IMG/VR virus record: IMGVR_UViG_3300017716_002237
Span: 1 to 34,948 of that record
Origin: a virus
Lineage: Duplodnaviria; Caudoviricetes
Length of the DNA: 34,948 nucleotides
Reading direction: 5' to 3' (one strand)
Part shown: positions 11,995-27,497 of the stretch, piece after piece
Position numbering within the stretch: the first letter of the stretch is position 1
Layout: each line of letters opens with the position of its first letter
Notes under the pieces: model-generated
Seen by the model: the letters and a program-made list of their open reading frames with translations, nothing else
Told to the model about the DNA's origin: nothing
The model's database searches: none
Position numbers and translations under genes: made by a program

Positions 11995-12393
11995 ATTCTT
12001 CTGGAAAACGGCACTAACATATTCGCTCTAACGCTCTCAGAGAAAACAACGATATCTGAGCCTACTTACTTGTTGTCATTTGAAAATCAAATGACAGGCG
12101 AGGTTATAAACTTTATAAGCTCTGACACATCTTCATACAAGAAGAGATATAACCTTCTAAGTGTTGAACTTGTAGCCGCAAAAGAAGATGAATCCCCTGT
12201 AGACGCTAAGATTTTCCTAGAAAAGACAGGCTATTACAACTACAAGGCCTATGCTCAAACAGACACAGGGAACCTAGACCCAGCACTAGCAAACGAATTG
12301 GTAGAGCAAGGTAAGGTTCTATATGGCTTTGAGCAAACCGCAACCCCTTCATTCAAGGCAGAAAGAGTACTAAAATCATATGGAAAACAATAA
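11992..12393 (+). CDS. Hypothetical virion protein
   Basis: 133-aa ORF overlapping the portal start. Confidence 0.65.
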   Translation: MILLENGTNIFALTLSEKTTISEPTYLLSFENQMTGEVINFISSDTSSYKKRYNLLSVELVAAKEDESPVDAKIFLEKTGYYNYKAYAQTDTGNLDPALANELVEQGKVLYGFEQTATPSFKAERVLKSYGKQ

Positions 12394-14410
12394 ACACGCA
12401 TTCTCAGTGGATATGGGCGGCTTCGTTAGTCAAAGCTTTGAGGCTAACTATAAAACTCCTTTGTTCATTAAGGAGAAATCCAAGGCTTACGTAAACTACG
12501 GGGAGGATAACCTTTACCCACAATACTTGGTAGAGATTTACAACCGCTCAGCAAAGCACAACGCTATCATACAAGGCAAGACAACTTTCATTCATGGTGG
12601 TGGTGTTAAGATTAAGCCAGAGAAGGGCGAAATTAAAGGCAAGCTAGCTGCGCAAAAGATGCTGGACACACCCAACGCATTTGAAACCTTAGATGAAATA
12701 TACAAGAAGCTCGTAGCTGACAAAGAATTGTATGGTGGATATGCTGTTCAGTTTGTTTGGAACATGTCTAGAGATGCTTGGAGTGAAGTTTACCATGTGG
12801 ATTTTGCTAAGCTTAGGGTTAGCGAAGATGGGAAGACAATTTTCTACTCAGAAGACTGGTCAGCATACAGGCCAAAGATTAAATCGTACCCAGCATTTAA
12901 TCCTAATAGCAAAACGGAAACGCAGATAATGTACTACAAGGAGTACAGACCTCACAGCAAGGTTTACCCACTTCCGACCTATGTAGGAGCTGTTCCGTAC
13001 ATTGAAGTGGACATAGAAATAGCAAGTTTCCACAGAAACAACCTTAAAAACGGCTTTTTCTTTGGTGGTATGGTGTCTTTCAACAATGGAGAACCTGAAA
13101 CCGCTGCTCAGAAAGACGAAATTGTCAAGAGTGTGACCAAGCGTCATCAAGGCAGTGAACAAACAGGCCGCTGGATAGTTACTTTCAATGATGGCAAGGA
13201 TAGAGCGCCAGAGGTTGACACCTTTGAACCAAGCGACTTGGATAAGCAGTTTGAAGCGCTCAACAAGCAGGTTCTAGAAGAGCTTTTTGTTGGTCACAGG
13301 GTTACAAGCCCTATGTTTTTTGGTATCAGAACCGCTGGGCAATTAGGAGGCAGAACAGAGATGGTAGAAAGCTTCAAGTTGTTTGAAAAGAACTATACCA
13401 AGCCTCAGCAAGACCATTTTGCAGGCCTGTTCAACTATATGGCCAAGATGAACGACGCTCCAGAGATATTCTACATAGAACCTTTGGATATGCCATCTCC
13501 AGAGCTGTCAGAAACTACAATGCTTGCAACGCTTAGCAAAGACGAGATAAGAGAAATGCTAGGTTATGCGCCTGTTGACACGTCAACCAACGCTCTAAAC
13601 GATAAGCTTAACACTTTAAGCCCACTTGTAGCTAACAACGTTCTAAGCAACCTTACCATTAATGAGAAGAGAAGCATCATAGGCCTGCCTGCGATTCCAG
13701 ATGGCGACAAATTGGAGCAGCAAATCGATACTACAAAAGACAAAGAGGTTGCGCAGCAAATGCAAAAGTTCTCTTTTACAGACCTGACTATAGACGAAGA
13801 GATAGCAATATTCTCTCAATTTGGCTCAGATGCTGCAGAATATGAGGAAGTGAAGTCCATTGGTCTTGCGTTTGGTGCTGTTGCTGATTCAGAAATCGAA
13901 AATGTTTTAGAAAGCGCAAGCGTTTTGCTTTTTGCTGACCAATACAAAGAGCTCGACGAAACCCAAAGAAAAGCTATTGAGTTTCTAAAGGCCAATCCTG
14001 AGGCAACCAAAAAGCAGTTGTCAACAGAACTTGGTTTAACCGACAAAGAGAGCGAAAAAGTTGTTAAGACCCTAGAGAAGGGTGAATACCTTAGCTACAA
14101 TAAGGGTGTATGGAACATAACGGCCTTGCCGCCAGCAAAAACTCTTGTTGACAAGATTATTGGAGAAGCAAAGAAGTTTGAGGTTAAGTACAGGTACAGT
14201 GGCGCAAAGGATTCCAAGAACAGAGACTTTTGCGCAGCGCTGCTAAAGCTCGAGAAGCTGTACTCTAAGGAGGAAATATCAACAATATCCAAAAGGGTTG
14301 GTAGGAATGTTTGGAGAACACGCGGTGGATGGCAGACCGTAGCTGGTACTGACACACACCTACCTTTCTGTCGTCACACATGGTTAAGCGTACTGGTAAA
14401 GAAAAAATAA
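12380..14410 (+). CDS. Portal protein with C-terminal extension (wHTH-like plus MuF-like Cys/His domain)
   Basis: Portal-type core (YGEDNLYPQYL, SAKHNAII, YPLPTY, HRVTSPMFFGI). The tail has an HTH-like segment and RDFC...GG...PFCRHTW. Confidence 0.8.
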   Translation: MENNKHAFSVDMGGFVSQSFEANYKTPLFIKEKSKAYVNYGEDNLYPQYLVEIYNRSAKHNAIIQGKTTFIHGGGVKIKPEKGEIKGKLAAQKMLDTPNAFETLDEIYKKLVADKELYGGYAVQFVWNMSRDAWSEVYHVDFAKLRVSEDGKTIFYSEDWSAYRPKIKSYPAFNPNSKTETQIMYYKEYRPHSKVYPLPTYVGAVPYIEVDIEIASFHRNNLKNGFFFGGMVSFNNGEPETAAQKDEIVKSVTKRHQGSEQTGRWIVTFNDGKDRAPEVDTFEPSDLDKQFEALNKQVLEELFVGHRVTSPMFFGIRTAGQLGGRTEMVESFKLFEKNYTKPQQDHFAGLFNYMAKMNDAPEIFYIEPLDMPSPELSETTMLATLSKDEIREMLGYAPVDTSTNALNDKLNTLSPLVANNVLSNLTINEKRSIIGLPAIPDGDKLEQQIDTTKDKEVAQQMQKFSFTDLTIDEEIAIFSQFGSDAAEYEEVKSIGLAFGAVADSEIENVLESASVLLFADQYKELDETQRKAIEFLKANPEATKKQLSTELGLTDKESEKVVKTLEKGEYLSYNKGVWNITALPPAKTLVDKIIGEAKKFEVKYRYSGAKDSKNRDFCAALLKLEKLYSKEEISTISKRVGRNVWRTRGGWQTVAGTDTHLPFCRHTWLSVLVKKK

Positions 14411-19002: not shown

Positions 19003-19278
19003 ATGAACAAAGCACGCAAACAACAACTAGCAGCCTTTAACCTTAAAGTTGAAGCGCTTAAAGAACAAATCGCAACACTTAGCGAGGACTTAATCGAGTT
19101 TCTTGAAGAGGAACTAGAACTAGCAGAGAACGTTTCAGAGAATCTTCAAAGCGGTGACGCTTGGGAGTCTAGGCAAGAAGACATTGAAAACCTTGAAGCC
19201 TCCAGCGCTGCATTGGAATCATCTGTCGAGAGCCTGTCAGAATGTATCGAAGAAGCAACCAAAATCACAGAAAACTAA
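19003..19278 (+). CDS. Highly acidic early protein (91 aa)
   Basis: Track ORF 18892..19278 with the start moved to ATG 19003, behind an A/C-rich leader. Confidence 0.7.
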   Translation: MNKARKQQLAAFNLKVEALKEQIATLSEDLIEFLEEELELAENVSENLQSGDAWESRQEDIENLEASSAALESSVESLSECIEEATKITEN

Positions 19279-19304
19279 ACAAACCAATTAAACACATAAA
19301 CAAC

Positions 19305-19757
19305 ATGGCAAACACAGTTAACCAGCTTAGAAGACTAAGCAAACCGCAGTTACAAGTTCAATCTTACCAACTACTAGCTAAGGCTGTAGGGGCTGCATTC
19401 GTAGGAAAAAGCAAAGAGATGTTAGTTGACATCATTCTTTTCCGCAGAGAACTAGCAACAGGAGTTGGTTTGGTTCTCGAGAACAACAAAGTTTTAGGCG
19501 CTCATGTTACTGAGCCAGCAACCGAAGACGAAACGCTTAACGTTTCTCAAGAAGAGGTTGAAATCCCTGCCCGAAAGGCTGCAAGGCCTAAAAAGGAGGT
19601 TACCCCACTTGGAACGCTCGAAGAATTAAAGGCAGCGCTCGAAGCTAGATACGGCAGCAACTCAGGCGAAATGTATCAAGGCCTAATAGAAGGCGGCTTT
19701 AAAGGTTTTAAACTTCGCAAGGCCTTGAACTCAATGATTAACAGAAAACAAAACTAA
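19305..19757 (+). CDS. Hypothetical early protein
   Basis: Track ORF 19242..19757 with the start moved to ATG 19305, behind aaacacataaacaac. Confidence 0.7.
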   Translation: MANTVNQLRRLSKPQLQVQSYQLLAKAVGAAFVGKSKEMLVDIILFRRELATGVGLVLENNKVLGAHVTEPATEDETLNVSQEEVEIPARKAARPKKEVTPLGTLEELKAALEARYGSNSGEMYQGLIEGGFKGFKLRKALNSMINRKQN

Positions 19758-25218: not shown

Positions 25219-25903
25219 CAACAAGGTTATACAATACCTTAATTCGCCATACTTGCTGCTAGCAAACCCTAAGTTTAACGACTTTTTCGAGCTTACAGAC
25301 AAGGAAGCTGAAGAGCTGAAAGAATTGAGGCCGCTCATTCAATACCATATGAGGTATGCAATGCTTGGGGAAGCACCTTACGAATTGCTTAGAGAGGGTT
25401 TGGATGCTTACTTTAGGGTTTACCTTTACAAAATATGGTTTCACCTTGGATATTACGGATTGCAAAACAAGGTGTTGCTAGATTATTGCGGCGGCAAAGG
25501 TTCTTATGCCAAGCAATTTGAGGCTGACAATCCACTTAGTACAGCAATAGTGCTAGACAGAGAAGGGGATATATCAGTTGACTTTGAGGCGAAACCAGAC
25601 TGGTATAAGGGTACGCTTCATGAAGGCGTGTACGACTTTGTTCTTCTAAGCGAAATACTTCATTGCAAAAACTTAGAATGGCAAGAGTACCTAATATTTT
25701 CCAGCCATGAAGTCTGCAAGCAAGGCGGAACGCTTATTATAGTAGAAAACGAGGATATCTTTATGGCTGAAAGGCTTGAAGAGTTAAAAGGAACAAAACT
25801 TGTTTCATCTAGAGATATACTCAGGCTTACAGAAGGTTTATTTCAATTAAAAAAATCATTTAAAATCAACGACCACACAATTTATGAATTTAAGAAAATC
25901 TAA
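25211..25903 (+). CDS. Class I SAM-dependent methyltransferase (small-molecule type)
   Basis: Motif I VLLDYCGGKG, post-I IVLD, motif II YDFVLLSEILH and motif III QGGTLIIVE. No DPPY/NPPY or PCQ DNA-methyltransferase motif. Confidence 0.85.
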   Translation: MFNNKVIQYLNSPYLLLANPKFNDFFELTDKEAEELKELRPLIQYHMRYAMLGEAPYELLREGLDAYFRVYLYKIWFHLGYYGLQNKVLLDYCGGKGSYAKQFEADNPLSTAIVLDREGDISVDFEAKPDWYKGTLHEGVYDFVLLSEILHCKNLEWQEYLIFSSHEVCKQGGTLIIVENEDIFMAERLEELKGTKLVSSRDILRLTEGLFQLKKSFKINDHTIYEFKKI

Positions 25904-26909
25904 CAGCAGCAATGGAAGAGTTACTTCTTTCAAGACTTACGCAGAAGCAGAAAGCTTCTTCGTTCACGAGATTTGCCACAATCCAGATTATGTAAACCAC
26001 GACACCAGCGAAATGGTTGGAGTTGGCTTTACACTAACAAATCCATTAGCCAACAAGAACAAGCATAGCAACTACGAGTATGCGCAAGCTTTCTTTGACT
26101 GGTTGATATCTGGTAAAGGAGAGTTAAGCTCTGAAGTACTCAGGCTCAATCCTTGGGCTCAAAGATTCATTGACACAAGCGGCCTTCCTGAAGGTTTTTC
26201 TGGCAGCTACGGAATCAAGCTTGCTGGACAGCTAGATGTTGCTGTCAACGAGTTGAAGGTTCAGAAGGAAGGCAGGCGTAGTTATGTATCTATCTTGTGG
26301 CCAAGCGACCAGATTATACTAACAAGCAAGACAACCCACGAGTATCCATGTACTGTTGGTTTCAGTTTCTTTGTTCGTAACGGAGCGCTGGACATGGTTG
26401 TTAACATGAGGTCTAACAATTGCTTAAATGTTCTGCCCTATGACGTATATAACTTCACGTCACTTCAAAAGATGGTTGCTTTCAGGCTTGGTGTTGACAT
26501 TGGTTATTACACACACTTTGCTAACTCGCTACATGTTTTCAAGAGTGACGTTCGTAGCGTTCTAGAAGGTGGTTACGAGTGGCAGCACGAAACAACCAAG
26601 CTACTATCCAACGAGTTCGAGCCAATCAGAAAGTGGGCTGACAAGGTAGGTATTCTAGCTCAATGCACCTCACACGCTCAGATTGTGAAGCTAGGAGAGG
26701 AGTCAGGCGAATTGTGTAGGCACGTTCTCAGAAACAACAAACAAGGGTACACAGATGCGTTAGGAGACATTCTTATAGTTATGGTGAACTTAGCAGCTAG
26801 CTTAGGAATTTCACTTGAACAAGCGCTTAATTTGGCTTGGCAAGAGGTTCACTCTAGAGAAGGCAAGATAAAGAACGGAACGTTTATTAAGCAAGGGGAT
26901 AACAGTTAG
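25884..26909 (+). CDS. Thymidylate-synthase-fold (dCMP-type) enzyme fused to a C-terminal MazG-like pyrophosphatase
   Basis: TS fold: W..SG, SYG, GRR, YPCT, MRSNN, LPYD and SLHVF. MazG domain (about 26600-26909): W...GI, QIVKLGEESGEL, DALGD and REGKIKNGTFIK. Confidence 0.85.
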   Translation: MNLRKSNSSNGRVTSFKTYAEAESFFVHEICHNPDYVNHDTSEMVGVGFTLTNPLANKNKHSNYEYAQAFFDWLISGKGELSSEVLRLNPWAQRFIDTSGLPEGFSGSYGIKLAGQLDVAVNELKVQKEGRRSYVSILWPSDQIILTSKTTHEYPCTVGFSFFVRNGALDMVVNMRSNNCLNVLPYDVYNFTSLQKMVAFRLGVDIGYYTHFANSLHVFKSDVRSVLEGGYEWQHETTKLLSNEFEPIRKWADKVGILAQCTSHAQIVKLGEESGELCRHVLRNNKQGYTDALGDILIVMVNLAASLGISLEQALNLAWQEVHSREGKIKNGTFIKQGDNS

Positions 26910-26911
26910 TT

Positions 26912-27436
26912 ATGGCAACAAGTTCAGACAGATACTTTATGGAGCGTGCTATGGTAGCGCGCTCCTTTAGCCCTTGCAACCGCCGAAAGGTTGGTGCTGT
27001 CATTACTGTTAATGGCCTGTTTGTTACAAGCAAAACATTCAACCACGTGGAGGGTAAAAGGTACGAGGCTTGCGAGTGCAACGGCAAGTCAAAGCCTAAC
27101 GTTGCTCATGCTGAAGCTTTGGCCTGCAAGGAGTTGAAAGAAAAACATGGTTACAACACAACAACGCTCAAGTACTCTTTATACGTAACAATGCTTCCTT
27201 GCCAACAATGTGCTGAGAAGATTGTTGACGCTGGTATCAAGGAAGTTTTTTGGTGGCAACAACATGGTAGAAAAGGGGTTGTTGAGTACTTGCTAAGCAA
27301 GGGTATATACGTAGAGCGTATAGAAATTCCGTACCTTGAACCTAATGATGTCAAGGCAGATGAAAACCTGTGGAAATTTTTACTAGGCAAATTCGGTAAC
27401 TTGGTATATATTTGCAGAGGTTTGTTTGTCAGCTAA
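26912..27436 (+). CDS. dCMP deaminase (ComEB/CDA family)
   Basis: Motifs SPCNRRKVGAVI, HAE, LYVTMLPCQQCA and AGIKEV. Confidence 0.9.
   Translation: MATSSDRYFMERAMVARSFSPCNRRKVGAVITVNGLFVTSKTFNHVEGKRYEACECNGKSKPNVAHAEALACKELKEKHGYNTTTLKYSLYVTMLPCQQCAEKIVDAGIKEVFWWQQHGRKGVVEYLLSKGIYVERIEIPYLEPNDVKADENLWKFLLGKFGNLVYICRGLFVS
27407..27414 (+). promoter_or_regulatory. Bacteroidota -7 promoter element upstream of the replication operon
   Basis: Exact TAnnTTTG match (TATATTTG) followed by a structured leader. Confidence 0.5.
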
Positions 27437-27497
27437 GCTGACAGAGTTGTTTCAGGAGTAGGGTTTAGTGGCTGTGGTGGCTGCTAGACCCTTTCCT
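27427..27497 (+). other. Palindrome plus stem-loop in the leader of the replication operon
   Basis: TGTCAGCT-A-AGCTGACA at 27427-27443 and an agggtttagtggc / gctgctagaccct stem at 27460-27492. Confidence 0.6.

Follow-up and report, generated by a model that had tools for sequence, protein, structure and literature searches.

The window analysed here, 34,948 bp long and carrying direct terminal repeats, is a whole virus genome whose completeness was rated 100%. It contains structural and recombination genes (terminase, portal, head, tail and YqaJ/Sak), as well as genes encoding a replication initiator and a primase-helicase. Annotation of its 47 ORFs using Pfam and PHROG detected no DNA polymerase, kinase or glycosyltransferase and no sugar-nucleotide genes, divergent forms of which could escape these profiles, and no tRNA genes were found in the 34,948-bp genome. 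A phage dNMP kinase was searched for in the window using PF02223, a custom kinase profile and RB69 gp159, and none was found; the ORF at 19242-19757 contains a Walker-A-like string, but it was rejected as a kinase because kinase evidence was absent. The 676-aa portal protein (12380-14410) gave a weak winged-HTH-like match near residues 525-568. Since the nearest terminase relatives belong to Flavobacterium phages (39% identity) and the sequencing runs matching the window are freshwater metagenomes, a Bacteroidota host is plausible.

The genes considered here overlap or abut one another in the order DUF6378 protein, methyltransferase (MTase), thymidylate synthase (TS)-MazG protein and deaminase, and a hairpin follows them (Table 1). 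Four terminator-like sites were found in the window versus 6.1 in shuffled sequences, that is, this class of site is not enriched.

Table 1. Features of the gene run (window positions)
Feature	Position	Strand	Evidence or description
DUF6378 protein, 98 aa	24922..25218	+	Pfam DUF6378, E 1.7e-10; Atlas DUF6378 clusters, score 0.95
SAM-dependent methyltransferase, family-2 (phenol O-methyltransferase-like), 230 aa	25211..25903	+	Predicted 5-hydroxypyrimidine O-methyltransferase
TS-fold domain, predicted flavin/O2 dCMP 5-hydroxylase (5hodCMP synthase)	25884..26582	+	Residues 1 to ~233
TS active-site codons	C156 26349-26351; E153 26340-26342; N179 26418-26420; D187 26442-26444	+	
MazG-like all-alpha dNTP pyrophosphatase domain, in frame with TS	26583..26909	+	Pfam MazG, E 1.2e-5; PHROG, E 5e-20
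Zn-dependent dCMP-type deaminase	26912..27436	+	Pfam dCMP_cyt_deam_1, E 1.5e-15
Terminator-like hairpin	27460..27492	+	15 pairs and T tail, consensus match, just 3' of the deaminase gene

The ORF at 25884-26909 (plus strand) encodes a protein of 341 aa that matches Thymidylat_synt in Pfam (E 4.9e-12) and carries the MazG domain at its C-terminus. The TS domain was aligned with E. coli ThyA (NC_000913), T4 gp42, RB69 gp48 and HY126 AfhB, and a homologue alignment of 29 sequences was composed of the window protein and 28 matches among 233 candidates. The ThyA residues R126/R127, C146, R166/S167 and H207 are kept in the window protein as R131/R132, C156, R176/S177 and H217, and N177, E58, D169, G173 and Y209 are altered to D187, F70, N179, V183 and F219, respectively. 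All of these kept and altered residues had been named in an earlier note on this DNA, and the alignment to E. coli ThyA placed each of them as claimed; the pairwise BLAST alignment with ThyA spans residues 111-209 only, and the mapping of E58 relies on the multiple alignment. The same note had stated that dCMP hydroxymethylases keep E58, D169 and G173, which is seen in T4 gp42, while F70, N179 and V183 stand at these positions in the window protein. In contrast to canonical ThyA, where N177 confers dUMP specificity, the window protein has D187 at this position, and its TS NCBIfam scores were far under the cut-offs.

It was revealed that D169N, N177D, L143E, C146, R126, R127, R166, S167 and H207 occur in 29/29 sequences, E58F in 28/29 (Tyr in one) and G173V in 28/29 (Thr in one). 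The possibility that the substitutions are unconserved decay, which had been raised earlier, is therefore not borne out. These residues make up a conserved active site, of which Y209F does not form part, this position being variable (13 Phe, 16 Tyr). Y209F had been listed among the changed residues; the substitution is indeed present in the window protein, but the MilA equivalent of Y209 was described as ribose-binding (PMC5175136) and is not a folate residue. L143E (window E153), which was absent from the earlier list, belongs to the published signature discussed below. The ThyA R21 loop (window 25884-26010) is shortened or missing in the methyltransferase-linked TS proteins. One TS homologue (L012:903-1606) is split in two frames near 1454-1490, either through an assembly error or as a broken copy. 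When longer or fused forms of the TS were looked for, a single distant match (530 aa) emerged.

The PDB entries closest by sequence were 9IQU/9IQC (E 1e-28), compared with 1e-13 for MilA and 1e-3 for E. coli ThyA, and the window TS domain is 35% identical to HY126 AfhB. Modeling using AlphaFold led to a model with a pLDDT of 89.5, for which the top fold match was 9IQC ('Monooxygenase dependent on riboflavin with dCMP and FAD', TM 0.86), with 9IQU ('phage HY126 dCMP hydroxylase-AfhB') next to it at the head of the matches. RB69 gp48 and HY126 AfhB share E58F, D169N, G173V and Y209F with the window protein. In a tree of 34 rows, the latter is placed inside the D169N clade with RB69 and HY126 (support 100/99), and this clade stands apart from six D169 enzymes, of which E. 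coli ThyA and T4 gp42 form long branches. Thus, by sequence, fold and tree the TS domain is a member of this family, and its own catalytic activity is predicted.

The accessible part of Lee et al. (2026, PMC13326640) describes RB69 gp48 and DLP3 gp80 as making 5-hydroxy-dCMP from O2, with incorporation of 18O2, and RB69 gp48 as carrying FMN. In the same part of that paper, N177D and L143E are present in the 5hodCMP synthases and D169N is diagnostic of them, nine diverse D169N homologues all yielded 5hodC in vivo, and 5hodC in DNA was reduced to traces when the phage kinase was missing (PMC13326640). One of these nine homologues could belong to the clade of the window protein. Judging from the residues and the model, the TS domain is very probably a flavin/O2-dependent dCMP 5-hydroxylase, an enzyme type that is already known. 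The D169N/N177D/L143E signature of the dCMP 5-hydroxylases, a family described in 2025-2026, explains the apparently lost folate residues. The earlier reading of a dCMP-specific enzyme that has given up folate chemistry in favour of another C5 electrophile agrees with this, but its further suggestion of SAM as the C5 donor or of a non-canonical role is not needed, since the electrophile is known for the family, namely flavin-activated O2, which gives 5-hydroxy-dCMP.

L001, L013 and L014 encode MazG as a protein of its own, and the TS-MazG fusion is particular to the window genome. An assembly error at the junction was considered and rejected, as contigs of the sequencing runs X1 (the possible source), X2 and X3 span it without differences. 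The DUF6378 gene is also located directly upstream of the MTase gene in L013 and L014, and from family context we take its product to be a possible second nucleotide pyrophosphatase. The closest PDB match of the deaminase was the dCMP deaminase 4P9C (E 7e-11). In the alignment its HAE and PCxxC motifs are intact and the allosteric G(Y/W)N(A/G) motif, as defined in PMC12088426, is replaced by KTFNH; this motif is also lost in the deaminases of L028-L030 and kept in that of L001. C5-modified dCMP is usually accepted by dCMP deaminases, and in XP-12 5-methyl-dCTP is deaminated to dTTP (PMC12088426).

The MTase contains the SAM motif DxGxG (D91/G95/G97) together with D116. With an E limit of 0.001, a search among 50%-identity representatives gave 74 matches, including the protein itself and one chance match (P0078, a 1351-aa repeat protein, which was rejected as a relative). 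In an alignment of 67 rows (the window protein, P0031, P0032 and 64 of these matches, leaving out the self hit, P0078 and short fragments), H151 and R188 are conserved in 67/67 sequences and E179 in 65/67. A tblastn search of 50,697 phage records with two MTases as queries gave no match, and a candidate from a prokaryote genome (L032) was discarded, since its single 25-residue match was not confirmed by the family profile.

Modeling of the MTase gave a pLDDT of 93.7. The best structural matches were small-molecule enzymes of family 2, namely the tyrosine O-methyltransferase MfnG (Z 20.2, rmsd 4.0, 211 residues aligned) and ASMT (Z 18.5), and MfnG, ASMT and DnrK ranked first in the profile search. 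Foldseek ranked PhzM first and also listed BchU and RdmB; the structural neighbours therefore include N-methyltransferases (PhzM, RosA), C-methyltransferases (BchU, Fur6) and RdmB, and the identity to all solved matches was 20% or less. H151 aligns with the His of the ASMT motif VLH and E179 with the Glu of VIE; these are presumably the positions of the catalytic His/Glu pair in plant-type O-methyltransferases. The N-terminus, the site of the dimerisation domain in family-2 enzymes, is short and helical, the structural alignments begin at residue 12, and the Methyltransf_2 Pfam score (17.2) is below the cut-off of 22.3; longer homologues retain a W..GLL..LT..G segment at the N-terminus. A predicted complex of the TS dimer with the MTase received a score of 0.01 and was counted neither for nor against an interaction. 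The simplest reading of the sequence, the model and the available analogy is that the MTase would O-methylate the 5-OH of the hydroxylase product, since 5-hydroxypyrimidines are chemically phenol-like and TrmR sets a precedent in tRNA. A methyl cap would shield the oxidation-prone and repair-prone 5-hydroxy base. O-methylation is less than proven, because enzymes that methylate N or C, as well as a SAM-dependent hydroxylase, also have family-2 folds.

To evaluate the linkage of these genes, two TS-seeded scans were performed, which gave 25 loci, namely the window itself, seven close loci (six distinct, 44-53% identical) and 17 more distant ones; duplicates were counted once (L009 is the window, L010 and L027 match L001, and L053-L060 repeat L001 and L028-L031). 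The same MTase gene was found directly upstream of the TS gene in 6/6 distinct close loci. No match to it was found in the 17 more distant loci, several of which have a thymidylate-kinase-like gene nearby. An MTase-seeded viral scan revealed a TS with D169N/N177D/L143E immediately downstream in 5/5 loci, and no additional genomes came from two more viral scans that started from other MTases. Four of these five loci (genomes G002-G005) represent a separate high-GC lineage, and their TS proteins branch elsewhere within the D169N clade. With the window counted, the deaminase is linked in 8/11 cassette loci; none was found in the fragments L011, L013 and L014 (1-6 kb). A pyrophosphatase-kinase fusion is carried beside the cassette in G002-G005, no dNMP kinase was detected in G001, and each scanned genome among G001-G004 has its own PolA. 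No glycosyltransferase or sugar-nucleotide genes were found by Pfam in the 119 ORFs of G001 and G002. The cassette around the TS domain, with the MTase as its partner, is new, the enzyme type itself being known.

A number of neighbouring genes were also observed in these scans. At L028:6258-7622 and equivalent positions in L029-L031, the gene that immediately precedes the MTase gene encodes a PRA-PH/MazG-like pyrophosphatase joined to a P-loop nucleotide-kinase-like domain, and no PDB match was found for a fusion of this type. The region L002:5388-7569 contains a more distant D169N TS beside kinase-like, MazG-like and different methyltransferase (Methyltransf_24) genes; a methylating partner may have been recruited independently there. 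U32-family proteins were found with weak Pfam matches at L038:2829-3893 (G001) and at L003:6640-7710, directly after a D169N TS; the available part of PMC13326640 gives a predicted collagenase protease as a match of RB69 gp50, and the U32-family proteins are a possible oxygen-independent backup for hydroxylation. Genes of DenV-like Pyr_excise glycosylases are located at L040:8937-9335 (G001) and L042:14657-15241 (G002), and none was found in the window.

The gene order, residues, fold and tree position, together with the fact that a phage kinase, polymerase and glycosyltransferase were not detected, allow us to propose the following pathway. Cys156 would attack dCMP at C6 and C5 would be hydroxylated by a flavin-oxygen species in what was once the folate pocket, yielding 5-hydroxy-dCMP, a step in which we have high confidence. 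The family-2-like enzyme would move the SAM methyl to the 5-OH by means of His151/Glu179, most likely on the mononucleotide. For these two steps jointly, and with an end in 5-methoxycytosine included, we consider it fairly probable that the cassette product is a 5-methoxy-pyrimidine. The deaminase could then turn the 5-substituted dCMP into 5-methoxy-dUMP, a thymidylate analogue made without folate, which host kinases and the host DNA polymerase would place for some or all of the T; a shift in the dNTP pool would be brought about by the MazG domain and perhaps by DUF6378. That 5-methoxyuracil replaces thymine in the window phage by this folate-free route, installed by host kinases and polymerase, is the end point that we favour, as a tentative proposal held at distinctly less than even confidence.

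Restriction-type palindromes were counted as an indirect test of a modified base. The observed/Markov expected counts in the window were 0/15 for CCGG, 1/40 for CCNGG, 2/25 for GGNCC, 7/39 for CGCG and 0/64 for GATC, so that the four GC-only sites occur 10 times versus 119 expected. Comparison of the genes with codon-preserving shuffles gave similar values (CCGG 0/26, CCNGG 1/27, GGNCC 2/26, CGCG 7/26, GATC 0/64). GGCC, GCGC and GCNGC were not depleted in the window; ACNGT was depleted (36/82). The near-total absence of CCGG, CCNGG, GGNCC and GATC, with the depletion of CGCG and ACNGT, suggests that the host possesses several type II restriction systems. The avoidance extends into the cassette (1 versus 10 expected for the five sites, P 4e-4), and this, together with a similar GC3, makes it less likely that the cassette was acquired very recently from a donor without such avoidance.

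The control phages gave the expected picture. In the C-modified RB69 and T4, of which 63 kb and 54 kb were sampled, respectively, the four GC-only sites were found at 0.83-1.24 of expectation, and in the T-modified SPO1 (49 kb) GGCC was found at 0/46 and CGCG at 0/19. Since the GC-only avoidance in the window is like that of SPO1 and unlike that of T4 and RB69, the cytosines of the window phage look unprotected, those of the cassette included. FpV9, which we assumed to be an unmodified control, also lacks some sites (CGCG 0/32), and so the avoidance indicates unprotected C, not modified T. As the T-containing GATC is absent, a T substitute would not be protecting this site. In the complete cassette genomes G001-G004 the values were 0.85-0.99 for CCGG, 0.87-1.31 for CCNGG and 0.55-0.75 for GGNCC, a weak avoidance that fits a protected cytosine. 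The near-absence of GC-only sites in the window and the adjacent deaminase thus tilt the choice towards 5-methoxyuracil over 5-methoxycytosine, and the fork stays open because these four other cassette genomes are without strong avoidance; different lineages may use different forks.

The other branch of this fork, within the 5-methoxy-pyrimidine reading, is that the same hydroxylase and O-methyltransferase end in 5-methoxycytosine replacing C, fully in the relatives bearing polymerase and kinase and partly in the window phage. MazG would then be a dCTPase, the deaminase would just feed dUMP for dTMP as in T4, and methylation would take place on the nucleotide or on DNA. We regard this outcome as unlikely but deserving serious attention. 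The TS-MazG fusion suggests dCTP-to-dCMP channelling, favouring C replacement, which is also consistent with the dCMP-type N177D site; the pyrophosphatase-kinase fusions of G002-G005, as in C-replacing phages, count against the uracil route, and CCGG and CCNGG in G001-G004 are near the T4/RB69 levels. All known 5hoC pathways finish in C derivatives according to the accessible part of PMC13326640, whose trace-only 5hodC without a kinase argues the other way, as a phage kinase was not detected in the window or G001. The near-absence of the four GC-only sites in the window, cassette too, also speaks against protected C.

A low probability is likewise assigned to a dCMP hydroxylase whose MTase partner performs other chemistry, namely cytosine N4-methylation, modification of another metabolite or cofactor, or a SAM-dependent reaction other than methylation. 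The N- and C-methyltransferases and RdmB among the structural neighbours, at no more than 20% identity, would allow for such a role. The strict pairing with D169N hydroxylases (5/5 MTase-seeded and 6/6 close TS loci), the leading profile matches to phenol O-methyltransferases and the position of the MTase where known systems have the transferase for the 5-OH argue for a reaction on the 5-OH instead.

It is highly improbable that, as the earlier note had hinted, the TS Cys activates C5 of dCMP for SAM as the electrophile, with folate-free 5-methyl-dCMP and, after deamination, dTMP as products. The folate residues are gone around an intact nucleotide site, the MTase and deaminase are adjacent, and the deamination of 5-methyl-dCTP to dTTP in XP-12 (PMC12088426) would be a parallel; however, the same substitutions mark proven hydroxylases that lack such an MTase partner, and the MTase is a separate protein with a small-molecule methyltransferase fold. 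A decayed or non-catalytic thymidylate synthase, as the R21 loop missing or shortened in the clade and the split homologue L012 might suggest, is scarcely credible in view of the 29/29 conservation of C146, R126, R127, R166, S167, D169N, N177D and H207 and the model pLDDT of 89.5.

A comparison of the predicted hydroxylase with HY126 AfhB (PDB 9IQC, 9IQU, 9IR2), RB69 gp48, DLP3 gp80 and RL38J1 gp216, all of which are 5hodCMP synthases in the accessible part of PMC13326640, indicated that the TS fold, C146, L143E, D169N and N177D are shared, as is the clade with RB69 and HY126. The window protein differs in the fused MazG domain and the shortened R21 loop, and its partners are an O-methyltransferase-like protein and a deaminase. 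T4 gp42 dCMP hydroxymethylase and MilA CMP hydroxymethylase also have the TS fold, the catalytic Cys, N177D and an acidic residue at 143, but E58, D169 and G173 are retained in them and methylene-THF is their cofactor (for MilA Glu68, PMC5175136). Unlike the glycosyl-5-hydroxycytosine systems of RB69, DLP3 and RL38J1, the window is without detected glycosyltransferases, sugar-nucleotide genes, a dNMP kinase or a DNA polymerase. Like the hmdU phages of the SPO1 type and XP-12, it combines a dCMP deaminase with a TS homologue in a pathway that would be pre-replicative; the avoidance of GC-only sites resembles SPO1 and the proposed deamination of a C5-modified cytosine nucleotide to a T nucleotide resembles that of dCTP in XP-12, whereas the TS homologues of these phages use folate one-carbon chemistry. 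SPO1 presumably encodes its own polymerase and kinase. TrmR, as described in the available part of PMC6158493, converts 5-hydroxyuridine in tRNA in a SAM-dependent manner, a change from 5-hydroxypyrimidine to 5-methoxypyrimidine like that proposed here; it acts on tRNA U34, unlike the phage MTase, the best matches of which are MfnG and ASMT. TrmR was not among the best 50 structural matches listed for the phage MTase.

Our searches of open-access papers found no report of 5-methoxycytosine, 5-methoxyuracil or methoxy-nucleosides in a phage, and subscription papers could mention them; the words 'methoxy' and 'methyltransferase' do not occur in the accessible part of Lee et al. (PMC13326640). 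In the 5-hydroxycytosine pathways described there, sugars are added to DNA in large phages with their own replication enzymes. The cassette predicts instead a small sugar-free methoxy cap, possibly as a substitute for thymine whose synthesis would need neither folate nor thymidylate synthase. If this is true, it would represent a new natural DNA base and a route round folate- or dTTP-limiting defences, and the MTase family (approximately 70 clusters at 50% identity) would be a marker for finding such phages.
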